Of a stretch of DNA of 64,000 nucleotides, positions 41,652 through 48,501 are shown one piece after another. The first letter of the stretch is position 1. Every line of letters starts with the position of its first letter. Source of the DNA: Phycisphaerae bacterium. GTDB taxonomy: Bacteria > Planctomycetota > Phycisphaerae > FEN-1346 > JAACEH01. Position numbers and translations under genes: made by a program. The stretch covers positions 1,551-65,550 of the forward strand of contig JAWLHX010000005.1 in NCBI GenBank assembly GCA_041690105.1, written 5' to 3'. Under the pieces are notes generated by a model that saw only the letters and a program-made list of their open reading frames with translations, was not told where the DNA came from and did not search any database.

Positions 41652-42968
41652 TCAGCTTTCAGCCTCAATCAACATGAATCGCAGGTCAGCCTCGGCAGCC
41701 TGATCGCTGCTGACCGTAGCCCGGCAGCGTACGTGTGCCCGCCGGGCCTGGGCCTTGACCACCTCGGCCTCGAGCTGAAGCTGATCGCCCGGCACCACAG
41801 GACGGCGCAGGCGCACCTTGTCAATGCTGATCAGCACCGCAACCTGACCGGTATGCTCCAGCTTGCGAAGCAGAAGCACCCCGGCCAACTGGGCCATGGC
41901 CTCCACAATCAGCACGCCCGGCATGATCGGCGTGCCCGGGTAGTGCCCCTGGAAGAACTGCTCGTTTATTGTTACATTCTTAATGCCTGTCACACGATCA
42001 TCGCCGGTTATCTCGACAATGCGGTCAACCATCAACATGGGGTAACGGTGCGGCAGAACCTTCTGAATCTGCCTGATGTCCATCAGCGTCTGGGCCTCGG
42101 CAATCTGCCGCCGGTTTTCGCTGAGCATCATCTTGCGCAGCCTGCGCACAAGCTCCTGGTTCAGTCTATGGCCACTGCGAACGGCCACAATGCGGCCGCG
42201 GATGTCGCTGTTGAGCAGCATCAGGTCGCCAATCAGGTCCAGCACCTTGTGCCGCACAGGCTCATCCGGAAAGCGCAGAGTGTTCTGAATAACGCCCTGC
42301 GGCCCGAAGACCAGTATGTCCTCGTAGGTCAGCAGTTTGCCGAAGCCCATCTCCCGGAGCTTATCGGCCTCGTTCTCCAGAATAAAGGTGCGGCTGGCGG
42401 CAATCTCCCGGGCGAAGCTGTCGCGGTTCAGGGTGATGGAAAAAGTTTGCGGCCGCACGGGGCTGCCACTGCCGTAATCGAGCTGGTAGATGATTGACAG
42501 CGAATCTTCGTCGCTGGGCAGAGCGGCAACCATGGCTCCGCCATCCTCCACCGTAACCGGCTCTTTAATGACCAGCGTGCGCCGCGTGGCGTCGAGCGTC
42601 TTGATGCCGGCCTGCTGAAAAAGCCGCACATAGCTGGCCGAGCTGCCATCGCAAGCCGGCAACTCTTCGCCATAAAGCTCTACAATCAGGTTATCGATAC
42701 CCAGCCCCGCCACCGCCCCCAGCAAATGTTCGACCGTGTGCACCTGCAGCGATCCATTGCCCAGGCTGGTCCGCTGGAAGGCCGGCACTACGCTGTCGAT
42801 GGTGGCCGGAATGCGCAAGCCGGGATCGACATCGGGCCGACAGAGAATTATGCCGGTATTCGCCGGTGCGGGCTTGAAGCGGACAGTGACCGGCTCGCTT
42901 GAAAAGAGCCCATGCCCCTCCATCTCCGCCTCGCGCTCAATTGTCTGTTGCATACGAGGTTCGGCCAA
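41652..42968 (-). CDS. lpxC-fabZ: Bifunctional LpxC deacetylase / FabZ dehydratase
   Basis: Lpx[21 protein letters not shown]; Fab[31 protein letters not shown]. Confidence 0.96.
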
Positions 42969-42971
42969 CGC

Positions 42972-44018
42972 TCAGCCTCCCGTAAAACGTTCTGCAATTT
43001 CGGCCAGCCGTCTTTCCAGACGCTCCAGCCGTCGCGACGCCCCAATCAGGTTACGCATCTCGGCCCGCATTCGCAAATCATCCTTCTGCAATTGAGCCGG
43101 AAAACCTCCGATTACACTGTTATCGGCGACATCCTTTGTAACTCCACTTTTTGCGGCAATACGAACATTGTTGCCAATCTTCAGATGACCATCGACCGCC
43201 ACCTGGCCGCCAAGCATGCAGTTTCGCCCCAGCGTGGTGCTGCCGGCAATGGCGCAAAGGGCAACAATAATGCAGTTTTCGCCGATACGCACATTATGAG
43301 CAATCTGTACCAGATTGTCTATTTTCACGTTGCGACCAATGACCGTGGCATCAAAACGGGCCCGGTCGATGGTCACATTGGCCCCGATTTCGGCATCATC
43401 TTCTATGACCACGCGGCCAATCTGCGGAATCTTGACCGGGCGACCAGTCTCAAACGTGTAGCCGAAACCGTCTGAGCCGACCACCGTGCCGCTATGTATG
43501 ATGACCCGGTCACCAATCAGGCAATGCTCCCGAATGGTTACCCGGGGGTAAACAAGGCAACCGCGGCCCAGCCTGGCACCCCGCCCGACGTAACTTCCGG
43601 GGCGCAAAACAGTTCCGTCGCCTATGACGGCATCCTGTTCGACGACCGCACCGGCCTGTATGCTGACCCCCCGCCCCAACTGGGCAGTCTCGTGCACAAT
43701 TGCTGCCGGATGACACCCGGCCGGGTCTTCGGGTGCGGGCGGAGCGAAAACTGCAGCCGCCCGGGCGAAGGCGGCATCGGCATTATCAACCCGGATAAGC
43801 GCCGCCGATGAGGGAACACGGCCCTTGTAAGCATGCCCTATGACCACGGCCGCAGCTTGCGTCGTGGCCACCAGCTCTGTGTACTTCGCATTGGCCAGAA
43901 AAGTGACATCGGCCGGCCCGGCCTCCTGCAGACTGCTGATGCCTGTAACGAGCCGACTGCCGTCTCCCTCGATCTGCCCGCCGATTTTTTCAGCCAGTTC
44001 GTCTATGGTAATTGACAC
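42972..44018 (-). CDS. lpxD: UDP-3-O-acyl-glucosamine N-acyltransferase
   Basis: DVTFLANAKY, VGSDGFGY, KIPQIGRV, IGANVTIDR, KIDNLVQIAHNV. Confidence 0.97.
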   Translation of the reverse strand: MSITIDELAEKIGGQIEGDGSRLVTGISSLQEAGPADVTFLANAKYTELVATTQAAAVVIGHAYKGRVPSSAALIRVDNADAAFARAAAVFAPPAPEDPAGCHPAAIVHETAQLGRGVSIQAGAVVEQDAVIGDGTVLRPGSYVGRGARLGRGCLVYPRVTIREHCLIGDRVIIHSGTVVGSDGFGYTFETGRPVKIPQIGRVVIEDDAEIGANVTIDRARFDATVIGRNVKIDNLVQIAHNVRIGENCIIVALCAIAGSTTLGRNCMLGGQVAVDGHLKIGNNVRIAAKSGVTKDVADNSVIGGFPAQLQKDDLRMRAEMRNLIGASRRLERLERRLAEIAERFTGG

Positions 44019-44254: not shown

Positions 44255-45070
44255 ATGCCAGGACGCGCCATCTGGAAGGGCATAATCACCTTCGGGCCAA
44301 TCTCGGTCCCGGTAAAGCTTTACAGCGTGCTGGAGAGCGCCAGGGTCAACTTCCACCTGCTGCACGACCAGGACCGCCAGCGTCTGCGCCAGCAGATGGT
44401 CTGCCCTCTGGAGGAGCGGCCGGTGGAGCGGGAGGAGACGGTAAAGGGCTATGAGGTGGAAAAAGGCCTCTACGTCATTGTTGAACCGTCGGAGTTGGAG
44501 GAGGCGCAACCGCCATCGGGCCGCGCCGTCGAGGTGCGACAGTTTGTTGCGGCCGATTCCATCGACCCGCGCTACTACGACCGGCCCTATTACCTTGGCC
44601 CTGATGAAAATGAGCGGGCCTTTGCCGCCCTGGCCGAGTGCCTCTCAAAGGAAGGCGTGGCGGGAATCTGCAACTGGGTCATGCGGAAAAAGTCGTACCT
44701 GGGAGCCCTGCGCCTGGTCGACAGAACGCTGTGCCTGATCAGCATGCATTACCACAGCGAGATAACGCCGGTGCAGGAGTTGGAGTTGCCACAGGCCAAG
44801 CTGGATAAACGCGAGCTCGAGGTGGCCAATTATCTTATCGAGACCCTGGCGGCCGACTGGAACCCGGATGCTTATCATAATGAATACGATGACCAGGTGC
44901 GCGAGCTGATCGAGCGTAAGTCGCGCGGCGAGCCCGTGCCGATCAAGCGGCGACGGCGCCCGCGGTCAACACGTCCAGACCGCCTGCTGGAGACACTGGA
45001 GGCCAGTGTGCGGGCCGCCGGCAAGAAGCGGAAGTCGAAGAAGGAATCTCATGCCAAAACCGGAAAATAA
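44255..45070 (+). CDS. ku: Ku protein, copy 1
   Basis: RAIWKGIITFGPISVPVKLY, FHLLH, KGYEVEKG, IDPRYYDRPYYLGP; GGAG RBS. Confidence 0.95.
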   Translation: MPGRAIWKGIITFGPISVPVKLYSVLESARVNFHLLHDQDRQRLRQQMVCPLEERPVEREETVKGYEVEKGLYVIVEPSELEEAQPPSGRAVEVRQFVAADSIDPRYYDRPYYLGPDENERAFAALAECLSKEGVAGICNWVMRKKSYLGALRLVDRTLCLISMHYHSEITPVQELELPQAKLDKRELEVANYLIETLAADWNPDAYHNEYDDQVRELIERKSRGEPVPIKRRRRPRSTRPDRLLETLEASVRAAGKKRKSKKESHAKTGK

Positions 45071-46307
45071 GCCCCGCCGGCGCAAGGGCGGAGAGCCGTC
45101 TGTGGCCCAGATTCGATCACCAGCCGGCACCAGAGGTGGCAAAGCACGGCCCGCGGCCAGCCTAGGACGGAACACCCGCGCCGGCGTTGACGCAGCTTCG
45201 GGCGAGATGGTATGTCCTTTCTGCGCCACCGGTTACCATTATGCTCAGGAGCGACGCTGCTGGGAGTGCGATGGCCCATCCTGCCCCCAGTGCGTCTCGC
45301 CCGACAACCACCCGCTCTGCCCCGAATGCGTCCAGAATCTGTCGCTGCCGCGCCACATACAGCCCATGCTGGCCACCCTCAGCAAATTGCCCGCCAGCCA
45401 GAGCGGCTGGGCCTACGAGTTCAAGTGGGACGGAGTCCGGGCCTTGTGCTACTGGGATGGCAAACGATTGCTGCTGGAGAGCCGCAATCTGCTCAACATC
45501 ACCTTTCGCTATCCCGAGTTTCACGATCTGGCCCTGCAACTGGGAGATCGCCCGGTAGTGCTGGACGGCGAAATTGTGGCCCTGGACCGACAAGGGAGTC
45601 CCAGTTTTCCGCTCCTTCAGCAAAGGATGCACATCAGCCCCGACCGGGTTGCCGAACGGGCCAGGCAGGTGCCCGCCCATTATTTCGTCTTCGATATTCT
45701 GCACCTTGGCCGTAAGTCGCTGATGCAGGAACCGTATCTGGCGCGTCGCAAAGCACTTGAATCGCTGGGAATCGATCATCCGCAGGTCAAGGTGCCTCCG
45801 CATGAGCTTGAAGATGGCGAAGCCATGCTTCAGACGGCTCGCGACCATCGGCTCGAAGGTATTGTGGCCAAGCGTACCGACAGCCCTTACGAGCCCGGTC
45901 GCCGCAGTCGGCAGTGGCTGAAAATCAAGATTGTGCAGGCCCAGGAACTGGTCATTGGCGGATGGACGCCCGAAATCAACAATGCCGGCCGCATTGGGTC
46001 GCTGCTGGTAGGCTATTACGAAGACAGCCCCCACGGCCCACGCTTGCGCTATGCCGGCAGTGTAGGCACGGGGTTTACCGATGCCGAAAACAAACTGCTG
46101 GTGCCCAGGCTGAAGCAACTGGAGCGCTCGGCCAGTCCGTTCGCCGATACTCCCCGCCGCAAGAACATGCGCCCGGTTGCGCCGCAACTGGTGGCCCACG
46201 TGGCCTACCGCCGCTGGCCCGCCGGCGGGCAGATACATCAGGCCTCGTACAAGGGACTGCGTGCCGATAAGCCTCCGCACGAAGTAGTCCGCGAAAGGCC
46301 ACGGTGA
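45051..46307 (+). CDS. ligD: LigD-type ATP-dependent DNA ligase domain with N-terminal 8-Cys domain
   Basis: QPMLAT, YEFKWDGVR, LDGEIV, FVFDIL, EGIVAK, WLKIK, OB domain YAGSVGTGF. AAGGA RBS before ATG 45051. Confidence 0.93.
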   Translation: MPKPENKPRRRKGGEPSVAQIRSPAGTRGGKARPAASLGRNTRAGVDAASGEMVCPFCATGYHYAQERRCWECDGPSCPQCVSPDNHPLCPECVQNLSLPRHIQPMLATLSKLPASQSGWAYEFKWDGVRALCYWDGKRLLLESRNLLNITFRYPEFHDLALQLGDRPVVLDGEIVALDRQGSPSFPLLQQRMHISPDRVAERARQVPAHYFVFDILHLGRKSLMQEPYLARRKALESLGIDHPQVKVPPHELEDGEAMLQTARDHRLEGIVAKRTDSPYEPGRRSRQWLKIKIVQAQELVIGGWTPEINNAGRIGSLLVGYYEDSPHGPRLRYAGSVGTGFTDAENKLLVPRLKQLERSASPFADTPRRKNMRPVAPQLVAHVAYRRWPAGGQIHQASYKGLRADKPPHEVVRERPR

Positions 46308-47128
46308 CCGCCATGCCTCCACGCAGCCTATGGAGTGGAACAATCAGCTTTGGACTGGTGAGTATTCCGGTCAACATGGTGCCGGCAGTGCGAGCGCAAC
46401 GGCTGCAGTTCCACATGCTGCACCGCAAGGACAACGCCCGGCTGCATCGCCGCATGTACTGCCCCGAGCACAACACCGTGGTGCATCCCGAGCACATCGT
46501 TCGGGGTTACGAGGTGGAGCCCGAGCAGTGGGTAACGGTGACCGAGGAGGAGCTTGACTCGCTGGAGCCTAAGCGTAGCCGCAGCATAGAGATAACCGAT
46601 TTCGTGCAGCTCGACGACATCCCGGCCCTGTACTACGATCGGCCATATTACCTGTTGCCCGACGGCGCCGGCAAGCCCTACAACCTGCTGGTCGAGGCCC
46701 TGTCGCGCAGCAAACGTGCAGGCCTTGCCCGCTTTGTGATGCATGGCCGTGAGCACCTGGTGGCCGTGCGGGCGATTGAGTCGGCCCTGTGCCTGATAAT
46801 GCTGCATTACCCGAGCGAAATCCGACCGGCCGACGACCTGCAGACGGACGCATCGCAGGCCGACAAAGATGCCGTCAAGACATTCCGCCGGGCGGCCAGC
46901 GGGCTGAAGTGGGATTTCGACCCGCAGGCTCATGAAAACCAATCGCTCGTGCGCCTGCAGCAGATAATCGAGAAGAAGCGGAAAAAGGTCGGCACGGTCG
47001 AAGCACCCGAGTCGTCCGAAGCGGAGACACAGGAAGAGGAGGCCGAGGAAGAGACCGGCGAATCGGTCGACCTGGTGGCCGCACTGGAAGCAAGCCTGGC
47101 CCGGGCCAAAAACAAGCGCCGCAAGTAA
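46304..47128 (+). CDS. ku: Ku protein, copy 2
   Basis: RSLWSGTISFGLVSIPV, IVRGYEV, IEITDFV, YYDRPYYLLP, DLVAALEASL. GTGA overlap with the ligase stop. Confidence 0.95.
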   Translation: MTAMPPRSLWSGTISFGLVSIPVNMVPAVRAQRLQFHMLHRKDNARLHRRMYCPEHNTVVHPEHIVRGYEVEPEQWVTVTEEELDSLEPKRSRSIEITDFVQLDDIPALYYDRPYYLLPDGAGKPYNLLVEALSRSKRAGLARFVMHGREHLVAVRAIESALCLIMLHYPSEIRPADDLQTDASQADKDAVKTFRRAASGLKWDFDPQAHENQSLVRLQQIIEKKRKKVGTVEAPESSEAETQEEEAEEETGESVDLVAALEASLARAKNKRRK

Positions 47129-47177
47129 GGCATTTGACCGAACCTCAAGTGCAGCAAGCAGATTGGAAGAGAACCGG

Positions 47178-48086
47178 ATGGCCAAACAGAAGACCACTGT
47201 GGAAGTTGCCGGAAAGAAGCTCGAACTGTCCAACCTGGACAAGGTTCTGTACCCAGAGACCGGCTTCACCAAAGGGCAGACCATCGACTATTACCGCCGC
47301 ATGGCCCCGCTCATATTGCCTCACCTTGAGGGCCACCCACTCACGCTGAAGCGCTACCCGCACGGTGTGGCGGAAGATTTCTTCTACGAGAAGCGTTGCC
47401 CAAGTTACCGGCCCGAGTGGATGGAAACCCGGCAGGTTGACACGCGCAGCGACAAGCCGCTCAAATATTGCGTGGTGAACGATGAGCCGGGCCTCGTCTG
47501 GGTGGCGAACCTGGCCAGCATCGAGCTTCACTCTCTGCTGTATCGCAAGGAGCATCTGGACAGGCCTACAGCTCTGGTCTTCGACCTGGACCCGGGTCCG
47601 CCCGCCGGACTGCTGCAATGCGCGGAGGTTGCCCTGGCAATGCGCGACATGCTGGGCGAACTGGGCCTGGAGAGTTTCCCCAAGTCCAGTGGCGGCAACG
47701 GCCTGCACTTTTACGTGCCGCTGAACACGCCGGTCACCTTCGACGACACGAAAGGCTTTGCCCGAGCCGTGGCCCGTACTTTCGAGAAGCATCAGGGTGA
47801 CCAGGTGACAAGCGTGATGAAAAAATCGGAACGCACCGGAAAGGTCTTCATCGACTGGAGCCAGAACGACCAGCACAAGACGACTGTTTGCGTCTATTCG
47901 CTGCGGGCTCGCCAAAGGCCGACGGTATCGGCGCCATTGGAATGGAAGGAAGTTGAGCAGGCGGTTAAGCGCGAAGATGCATCAGGGCTTATTTTTGAAG
48001 CCGAGCAGATGCTGCAGCGGGCCGACAAAAAGGGCGACCTGTTCGCGCCGGTGCTTACGCTCAAGCAGAAGCTCCCAGCAATCTGA
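47178..48086 (+). CDS. ligD: Stand-alone LigD primase-polymerase domain
   Basis: LSNLDKVLYP, LTLKRYPHG, FDLDPG, KSSGGNGLH, VFIDWSQN, VYSLRAR..PTVSAPLEW. Confidence 0.95.
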   Translation: MAKQKTTVEVAGKKLELSNLDKVLYPETGFTKGQTIDYYRRMAPLILPHLEGHPLTLKRYPHGVAEDFFYEKRCPSYRPEWMETRQVDTRSDKPLKYCVVNDEPGLVWVANLASIELHSLLYRKEHLDRPTALVFDLDPGPPAGLLQCAEVALAMRDMLGELGLESFPKSSGGNGLHFYVPLNTPVTFDDTKGFARAVARTFEKHQGDQVTSVMKKSERTGKVFIDWSQNDQHKTTVCVYSLRARQRPTVSAPLEWKEVEQAVKREDASGLIFEAEQMLQRADKKGDLFAPVLTLKQKLPAI

Positions 48087-48147: not shown

Positions 48148-48501
48148 TCACATCCAGTACGGGTCAACGCCGTAGAAATCGTGCACCTGCATGGCCCAGC
48201 GCTGATTAGCCATGTCGGGCCAATGGTCTTTGTCGAAACCCGGCGCATCCTTCAGCACTGCCTTATCGACATTGAGCACAAAATGCTTCTTCTCCCGGTC
48301 CAGCGACAGCGCCCCCCAGGGCACGGCAAAATACTTGTCGCCCATGCCTAGAAAACCGCCGAAGCTCAGCACCACGTAGGCGATGCATCCCCGCTCGATG
48401 TCGATGGCCATATCCTGGATCTCGCCGAGCTTTTCGCCCTGCATGTTCACAACGTCTTCCCGGGTTACAGCGCTGACAGCTATTATCTTTGCACCAGACA
48501 T
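48148..48501 (-). CDS. PRC-barrel domain protein
   Basis: DVVN..GEKLGEIQD, IAYVVLSFGGFLGMGDKYFAVPW, LKDAPGFD..HWP. Confidence 0.92.
   Translation of the reverse strand: MSGAKIIAVSAVTREDVVNMQGEKLGEIQDMAIDIERGCIAYVVLSFGGFLGMGDKYFAVPWGALSLDREKKHFVLNVDKAVLKDAPGFDKDHWPDMANQRWAMQVHDFYGVDPYWM

Follow-up and report, generated by a model that had tools for sequence, protein, structure and literature searches.

Bacterial nonhomologous end joining (NHEJ) is usually described as the work of two proteins, a Ku homodimer and LigD. An operon at positions 44255-48086 of a 64,000-nucleotide stretch of DNA from a Phycisphaerae bacterium of the Planctomycetota (GenBank contig JAWLHX010000005.1, positions 1,551 to 65,550; this whole stretch is referred to below as the window) encodes two unlike Ku proteins, Ku1 and Ku2, with a ligase gene between them and a polymerase gene behind them. 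The locus raises the question of whether the two Kus act as partners and, if they do, in what form. On the basis of gene order, phylogeny, and domain comparisons, we favor, with a probability of about 0.6, a three-part end-joining module composed of a zinc ribbon (ZnR) and two Ku families, termed here KuA and KuB, in which the two Kus would form a heterodimer. The comparative evidence shows KuA and KuB in an obligate, ordered, and co-expressed partnership, for which a Ku heterodimer is the probable form.

A four-gene end-joining operon with two Ku genes

The four-gene operon was confirmed to be a genuine DNA-break-joining unit. Four open reading frames (ORFs) on the same (+) strand fill the interval and encode, in order, Ku1, a ligase-only LigD-type protein, Ku2, and a LigD-type polymerase, all four being intact members of NHEJ protein families (Table 1). 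The ORFs and domains agree with a preliminary description of this locus, which had read it as a Ku, ligase, Ku, polymerase operon with junctions of -20, -4, and +49 nucleotides (nt). These spacings were also borne out. The Ku1 and ligase genes overlap by 20 nt, with an AGGA preceding the ligase ATG at 45051, and the polymerase gene follows Ku2 after 49 nt. The ligase/Ku2 junction measures -4 nt (GTGA) with the Ku2 start at GTG 46304 and +5 nt with the start at ATG 46313, the latter agreeing with homologues that begin MP..W.

The divergence of the two Kus, also proposed in the preliminary description, was upheld by an identity of 37% over a gap-free alignment of 224 amino acids (aa) and by their placement in separate clades. 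The Ku core was the sole domain detected in each protein, with no vWA domain and no Ku70/Ku80-specific C-terminal domains, and the nearest solved structures are the Bacillus subtilis and Mycobacterium tuberculosis Kus (9vnq, 9i91, and 8v53). The bit scores in Table 1 are to be read against cut-offs of 150 bits for TIGR02772, the bacterial Ku equivalog, and 227.75 bits for TIGR02779. Ku1 and Ku2 are the sole Ku genes found in the metagenome-derived assembly (3.9 Mb in 154 contigs, ~90% complete), for which the best-matching loci belong to Planctomycetota. The best explanation of the operon is that it represents the only Ku-dependent end-joining system of its Phycisphaerae host, its end-joining activity being predicted.

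Table 1. Features of the end-joining operon and its flanking genes, in window coordinates.
Feature	Size or extent	Position	Strand	Supporting match
Ku1, KuA (upstream type)	271 aa	44255..45070	+	Pfam Ku (PF02735) 8e-42; TIGR02772 256 bits
Zinc-ribbon-fused NHEJ ligase	418 aa	45051..46307	+	DNA_ligase_A_M + A_C; TIGR02779 (NHEJ_ligase_lig) 272.6 bits
8-Cys zinc-ribbon (ZnR) domain	~residues 50-95 of ligase	45198..45335	+	ZnR HMM E=1e-10, 37.7 bits
Ku2, KuB (downstream type)	274 aa (GTG 46304) or 271 aa (ATG 46313)	46304..47128	+	Pfam Ku (PF02735) 2.6e-46; TIGR02772 256 bits
Stand-alone LigD-type primase-polymerase (POL)	302 aa	47178..48086	+	PF21686 (LigD_Prim-Pol) 8e-86; TIGR02778 283 bits
lpxD, upstream boundary, outside the system		42972..44018	- (divergent)	Pfam LpxD + Hexapep
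PRC-barrel gene, downstream boundary		48148..48501	- (convergent)	Pfam PRC 5.6e-16

Paired Kus form two ordered and co-inherited families

The preliminary description had called for a survey of the gene order and had staked its reading on the order being conserved. An unbiased survey of 401 Planctomycetota genomes found Ku in 57 of them and linked Ku pairs in seven, two interleaved with a ligase gene and five directly tandem. Two further scans were performed with one genome per species. The first, seeded with downstream-type Kus, added 23 tandem pairs, mostly from Solirubrobacterales and Thermoleophilales, and many single-Ku Lig-Ku-Pol operons as well. The second was seeded with KuA alone, using a six-sequence alignment (A3), and was unbiased regarding the partner; it placed a Ku2-like gene directly downstream in 76 of 79 new loci, the three exceptions being a Lig-Ku-Pol operon of the Tepidisphaeraceae, one actinobacterial singleton, and one locus ending at a contig edge. 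Among the unique linked pairs, the Ku1-like gene preceded the Ku2-like gene in 106 of 107, and the single exception is a frameshifted single gene, leaving the order conserved in 106 of 106 genuine pairs.

The paired Kus span at least six phyla, namely Planctomycetota, Acidobacteriota (Pyrinomonadaceae and others), Gemmatimonadota, Pseudomonadota (Gamma/Beta), Myxococcota, and Actinomycetota. In the Gamma- and Betaproteobacteria, where the pairs belong to Halomonadaceae, Marinobacter, Alcanivoracaceae, and Gallionellaceae, they are arranged as LigD-KuA-KuB.

Phylogenetic trees were built from the Ku core domain only (~240 residues). A maximum-likelihood tree of 88 Ku cores placed 11 of 11 upstream Kus in one clade and 11 of 11 downstream Kus in another, each with UFBoot/SH-aLRT support of 100/99, and the two clades mirror each other in internal topology. 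An enlarged tree of 237 rows gave a similar division. All 61 downstream Kus, plus one row cut at a contig start, formed one clade (SH-aLRT 94), and 55 of the 63 upstream Kus formed another (SH-aLRT 99), the remaining eight, from Thermoleophilia, making up a separate clade of their own (SH-aLRT 99). No genuine singleton Ku was present inside the upstream- or downstream-Ku clades of this tree. Ku1 of the window lies within the 55-row, all-upstream clade, and Ku2 lies within a 53-row, all-downstream subclade (SH-aLRT 98) nested in the 62-row clade. Sampling was partly seeded with the clades under study, and the phylum survey and the KuA-seeded scan provide the less biased checks.

These comparisons show that KuA and KuB represent two ancient Ku lineages which, where found, occur together and in order. 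Translational coupling of the two genes is usual, and the lineages have undergone parallel diversification. With the order fixed in all genuine pairs and the members in two separate clades, Ku1 and Ku2 are not products of a local duplication.

Three observations concern Kus around these families. The actinobacterial pairs from Solirubrobacterales and Thermoleophilales (L155-L218) share the KuB clade, have their upstream Kus in the separate clade, and carry the zinc-ribbon gene in no case; the separate upstream clade may reflect either partner replacement or an older split. Single-Ku Lig-Ku-Pol operons are common in Tepidisphaerales, Solirubrobacterales, and Acidimicrobiales (L141, L142, L149-L154, L012, L015, and ~20 others), and the Kus they encode belong to neither of the paired clades, lying closer to KuA than to KuB. 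Finally, one genome of the same class (G040) has a Lig-Ku-Pol operon and four extra partial Ku-domain matches in frames of 131-217 aa on contigs C9, C39, C49, and C125, which may be Ku fragments or mini-Ku proteins.

Junctions and C-terminal arms of the paired Kus

The tandem pairs are tightly joined. Half of the KuA/KuB junctions overlap, with a mode of -8 nt, and 64 of 80 measure 30 nt or less. Beyond the core, the members of a pair differ in their C-terminal arms. The first 25 tail residues have a mean net charge of +1.8 in KuA and -1.7 in KuB, and the canonical C-terminal peptide (D-hydrophobic-hydrophobic-xx-hydrophobic-xx-S) was found in none of 107 KuA sequences, in 49 of 105 KuB sequences, and in 69 of 144 single Kus. 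The window follows the same pattern. In Ku1, the linker and tail are basic (KRRRRPRSTRPDR...KKRKSKK) and the C-terminal motif, LLETLEASV, is degenerate; in Ku2, an acidic linker (SSEAETQEEEAEEETGE) precedes the canonical motif VDLVAALEASL. The acidic linker of KuB and the basic linker of KuA occupy the same position, and by charge and motif the two arms are complementary. In M. tuberculosis, the Ku C-terminus contacts the POL and LIG domains of LigD and regulates both DNA binding and LigD activities (PMC13717202).

The preliminary description had taken the two Kus to be partners, perhaps in a heterodimer. The partnership stands, as indicated by the fixed order, the co-occurrence, the co-diversified clades, and the complementary arms, whereas the heterodimer is retained at the weaker grade of a probable assembly.

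In some Planctomycetota tandems, a C-terminal Rho_N/HeH domain is present on KuB only (L133:2901-3836(-), 26.1 bits; L134:5054-5962; L132, L135, and L300).

A zinc ribbon shared by the ligase and the Ku-pair loci

The ligase is composed of a disordered basic tail, an eight-cysteine zinc ribbon, and a LigD-type adenylation and OB core. The ribbon contains four CxxC pairs in the pattern C-x2-C-x11-C-x2-C-D-x3-C-x2-C-x8-C-x2-C. An AlphaFold2 (AF2) model of the protein has a mean predicted local distance difference test (pLDDT) score of 84, with residues 1-43 disordered and values of 71-80 across the ribbon. No Pfam or NCBIfam model matched the ribbon above cut-off, the sub-threshold resemblances being to FYVE, RING, B-box, and double zinc ribbon. 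A word-based search with the same region retrieved two close relatives only (P0002 and P0003), both of which retain the domain, and the basic tail ahead of it is variable.

A counterpart was found beside the Ku pairs themselves. In 55 tandem loci, a small ORF with the same cysteine framework ends 0-25 nt ahead of KuA. A hidden Markov model (HMM) was built from these 55 stand-alone proteins encoded upstream of KuA, with no ligases included, and searched against the 1223 ORFs of the window, where the ligase alone matched (Table 1) and the next best ORF had E=0.26. The model also matches the ligases of L130, L006, L005, and P0002. The resulting alignment (A5) is gap-free in the cysteine framework, with eight cysteines and one aspartate invariant. 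The free ZnR proteins are 65-120 aa long and carry an N-terminal PWW[LF]E motif that is absent from the ligase-fused forms. On this evidence, the N-terminal eight-cysteine domain of the ligase was shown to be homologous, as judged by profile and alignment, to the small ZnR protein otherwise encoded directly upstream of KuA, and through this natural fusion the small zinc-ribbon family is tied to the ligase step. The preliminary description of the operon had drawn no connection between the ribbon and the Ku pair, the domain itself having been recorded in a separate note.

The distribution of ZnR follows the Ku pairs. Of 100 tandem loci, 58 have it, as do 3 of 7 tabulated interleaved loci (5 of 9 when the window and its closest relative, L308, are included). 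Among 144 loci classed as single-Ku it was found at two, both of which are pairs cut by a contig end, so that none of 142 true single-Ku loci has it. Within the window's genome, no second ZnR copy was found besides the ligase domain. The literature searched contained no account of a zinc ribbon associated with LigD or NHEJ.

The interleaved cassette and its split LigD

The Ku-Lig-Ku-Pol(-PE) order, where PE denotes the phosphoesterase, was found in nine genomes, all of them Planctomycetota: the window, L308, L005 (Ca. Kuenenia sp.), L006, L007, L011 (Anaerohalosphaeraceae), L130, L229, and L230. The ku genes of the window are thus not directly adjacent, the 1.25-kb ligase gene lying between them, and this interleaving in nine genomes compares with 100 tandem loci. 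L308 is the closest relative; its four proteins are 76, 75, 67, and 80% identical to those of the window, and its upstream context differs. The measured interleaved junctions are tight (-17/+5/+36 in L308, -8/+1/+1 in L005, and -32/+17/-4 in L006). In both Ku trees, the interleaved rows form a subclade inside KuA and a subclade inside KuB, and the cassette is therefore a rearranged form of the pair, specific to this lineage, in which LigD is split.

The enzymes of the cassette belong to recognized LigD families. Neither a POL nor a PE domain was detected in the ligase protein by domain search. Its nearest solved structure is the ligase domain of M. tuberculosis LigD (1vs0, E=1e-54), and the lysine of motif I, K125 (EFKWDG; KxDG), is invariant in the ligase alignment (A4). 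The polymerase matches the POL domain of M. tuberculosis LigD (2iru, E=4e-62) with conserved FDLDP and F(V/I)DWSQN segments (FIDWSQN in the window), in which we take the catalytic aspartates to reside. The preliminary description had singled out the division of LigD into separate ligase and polymerase genes; the division is real, but split LigD has already been published as a recognized category, "nonconventional NHEJ" (Sharda et al. 2020, PMC7719229).

The same description had noted the absence of a PE domain, which holds for the window and its contig but not for the genome. No match to PF13298 (PE) was found on the 89.8-kb contig that contains the window, and a stand-alone PE of 224 aa is encoded on another contig, C105, of the same genome (PF13298, 138.7 bits), flanked by genes for a 2-phosphosulfolactate phosphatase and a nucleotidyltransferase. 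The PE has been relocated in this genome, not lost, and with the C105 gene the idea of an organism without PE was rejected. In related cassettes, the PE follows Pol (L130, L229, and L230) or is fused to it (L005 and L007).

The Pol-PE fusions without a ligase domain, L005:6962-8443 (494 aa) and L007:4396-5946 (517 aa), represent an unusual combination of LigD domains. A second, distant PE-like protein of 161 aa is encoded on contig C72 (L002:1465-1950; PF13298, 40.6 bits), far from any Ku gene.

A proposed mechanism and its alternatives

We propose that KuA and KuB would assemble at DNA ends as an asymmetric heterodimeric ring in which labor is divided. The basic arm of KuA may add DNA affinity through binding or bridging, and the canonical C-terminal peptide of KuB may recruit and stimulate the separate Pol and Lig proteins, a role modeled on the M. 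tuberculosis and B. subtilis Kus, whose C-terminal peptide acts on LigD domains in this way. ZnR could be a third subunit or an adaptor, holding the ligase to DNA or to the paired Kus, and the interleaved order of KuA, ZnR-Lig, KuB, and Pol would favor co-translational, stoichiometric assembly. In such a complex, Pol would fill and align the ends, the unlinked PE would trim 3' ends, and ZnR-Lig would seal them.

Several points weigh against this proposal. The co-occurrence, the fixed order, and the coupling are compatible with obligate functional partners of any kind, two homodimers included, and the case for a heterodimer is made here from comparative sequence data. The gap-free alignment of Ku1 with Ku2 leaves neither protein visibly without the ring elements needed for a homodimer. 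Close outgroups with Lig-Ku-Pol operons (L141, L142, and L149-L154) manage on one Ku. ZnR is absent from 4 of 9 interleaved cassettes and from 22 of 22 Actinomycetota pairs, and it is therefore dispensable in some lineages. At 90% completeness of the genome, another Ku or ZnR could have escaped detection. A scan of the 236 nt 5' of Ku1 for a sigma-70 consensus promoter and a terminator gave nothing useful. No natural Ku-Ku fusion was present among the best 150 of 11,290 Ku representatives in an HMMER search of 1.84 billion representatives, a result that is uninformative and does not count as negative evidence.

The alternative that survives best, although we consider it unlikely, is that the operon encodes two separate homodimers, KuA2 and KuB2, which act at different steps, on different types of end, or with different enzymes and are co-inherited as both are needed; one might, for example, bring in Pol and PE while the other brings in the ligase. 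All solved bacterial Kus retrieved by a PDB search carry the plain annotation NHEJ protein Ku, and the B. subtilis and M. tuberculosis structures were published as homodimers. Both Kus of the window keep a full-length core, and their differing C-terminal arms could address differing partners. However, two homodimers alone leave unexplained the strict KuA-KuB order, the overlap of stop and start codons seen in every second tandem, and the singleton-free clades. The canonical peptide that recruits the ligase was never found in KuA, and a homodimer of KuA would therefore recruit poorly by itself.

More doubtful still is a mixed or regulated system in which homo- and heterodimers both form and KuB modulates the DNA binding, threading, or bridging of KuA. 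The acidic linker of KuB, sitting where KuA has its basic one, would suit such a role, as would the control of DNA binding and LigD activities by the M. tuberculosis Ku C-terminus (PMC13717202). Translational coupling, on the other hand, suggests approximately equimolar synthesis of the two proteins and not a regulatory titration. A last explanation, that the Kus are redundant paralogues in an incidental arrangement, derived from a recent duplication or from horizontal acquisition of a spare Ku, has very little probability: some bacteria commonly carry several Ku copies (four in Sinorhizobium meliloti and many on Streptomyces plasmids), but 37% identity, well-supported co-diversifying clades in at least six phyla, the 106/106 order, and the intactness of both genes stand against redundancy, which the Ku phylogeny effectively refutes.

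Comparison with known systems

The proposal of a heterodimer of bacterial Kus has a precedent, which also anticipates the suggestion in the preliminary description. In S. meliloti, genetics and co-occurrence pointed to a Ku heterodimer in the Ku3-Ku4/LigD4 system, of which one subunit is rich in Lys and the other is plain (Dupuy, Sauviac & Bruand 2019, PMC6379672). The window resembles this system in having two unlike ku genes in one operon, a basic arm on the upstream subunit only, and separate clades whose members always co-occur. The window's genome has no Ku beyond the pair, whereas the main Ku of S. meliloti is another protein, the homodimeric Ku2. The ku3-ku4 operon lies on pSymB, and a region of pSymA holds ku1-ligC; in the ku3-ku4 stretch examined (L146), a ZnR gene is absent and the two Kus are not separated by a ligase. 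The four S. meliloti Kus (Ku1-4, from pSymA and pSymB) cluster together (SH-aLRT 97-98), far from both clades of the window. Orthology of the window pair to Ku3/Ku4 was rejected, as the S. meliloti Kus form a distant clade of their own, and because they cluster apart, the window-type pair arose independently of the rhizobial pair.

Compared with canonical bacterial NHEJ of M. tuberculosis, Pseudomonas aeruginosa, and B. subtilis, the operon uses the same protein families and catalytic motifs, and KuB retains the Ku C-terminal peptide. It differs from the canonical Ku homodimer and three-domain LigD in having two Kus, separate Lig, Pol, and unlinked PE proteins, and a ligase with an extra eight-cysteine zinc ribbon. 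A further comparison is with the ZnR-KuA-KuB trio of Acidobacteriota, Gammaproteobacteria, Gemmatimonadota, Myxococcota, and Planctomycetota, which itself was not found in the literature searched. The Kus of the window belong to the same KuA and KuB clades and its ribbon has the same framework of eight cysteines and an aspartate, but in the window ZnR is the N-terminus of the ligase, lacks PWW[LF]E, and is encoded by a ligase gene inserted between KuA and KuB.

Eukaryotic proteins offer analogies only. Ku70/Ku80 are likewise asymmetric paralogous subunits, and the HeH/Rho_N domain confined to KuB in some tandems recalls the SAP domain of Ku70; however, the Kus of the window have no vWA or Ku80 C-terminal domains, and the duplication is independent. 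DNA ligase III (Lig3), like the window ligase, has an N-terminal zinc module, but the ribbon of the window does not match its PARP-type finger.

Implications of a paired Ku system

Neither the splitting of LigD nor the suggestion that bacterial Kus can form a heterodimer is new to the literature. In the literature searched, we found no proposed exception to the Ku homodimer besides the genetically inferred rhizobial heterodimer, and no account of the broad KuA/KuB family, its independence from Ku3/Ku4, the zinc-ribbon association, or the ligase fusion. A wider proposal may be advanced tentatively, at somewhat less than even odds: that KuA-KuB, often with ZnR, constitutes an ancient and undescribed heteromeric end-joining machine of at least six phyla, in which Ku would be an obligate heterodimer independent of Ku70/80 and Ku3/Ku4 and ZnR a dedicated third subunit coupling the ligase to the Ku ring. 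If this is true, the ZnR-ligase fusion of the window would be a natural "Rosetta stone" that exposes the link between ligase and Ku.

The pair is found in more than 100 genomes and at least six phyla, and it is broader than the rhizobial case and phylogenetically coherent. If it forms a heterodimer, asymmetric Ku rings would have evolved at least three times, in eukaryotes, rhizobia, and the KuA/KuB family, and bacterial models would be available for asking why Ku asymmetry is useful. For an uncharacterized small family, the ZnR-ligase fusion provides a concrete and testable hypothesis of function, namely that the small protein serves as an adaptor between the ligase and either Ku or DNA. With its four genes, the compact cassette is also a self-contained candidate for reconstitution and a possible end-joining tool for genome engineering in laboratory strains.

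Genomic context of the operon

The operon is bounded by genes on the opposite strand (Table 1), and the G+C content is even across the whole window. Just upstream, lpxD adjoins a gene for an LpxC-FabZ fusion protein (438 aa; 41652-42968, - strand). Downstream, L308, the closest relative, shares the PRC-barrel neighbor in convergent orientation (L308:8027-8380), and the same neighbor is present in L309; its linkage to the operon may reflect chance or an accessory factor.

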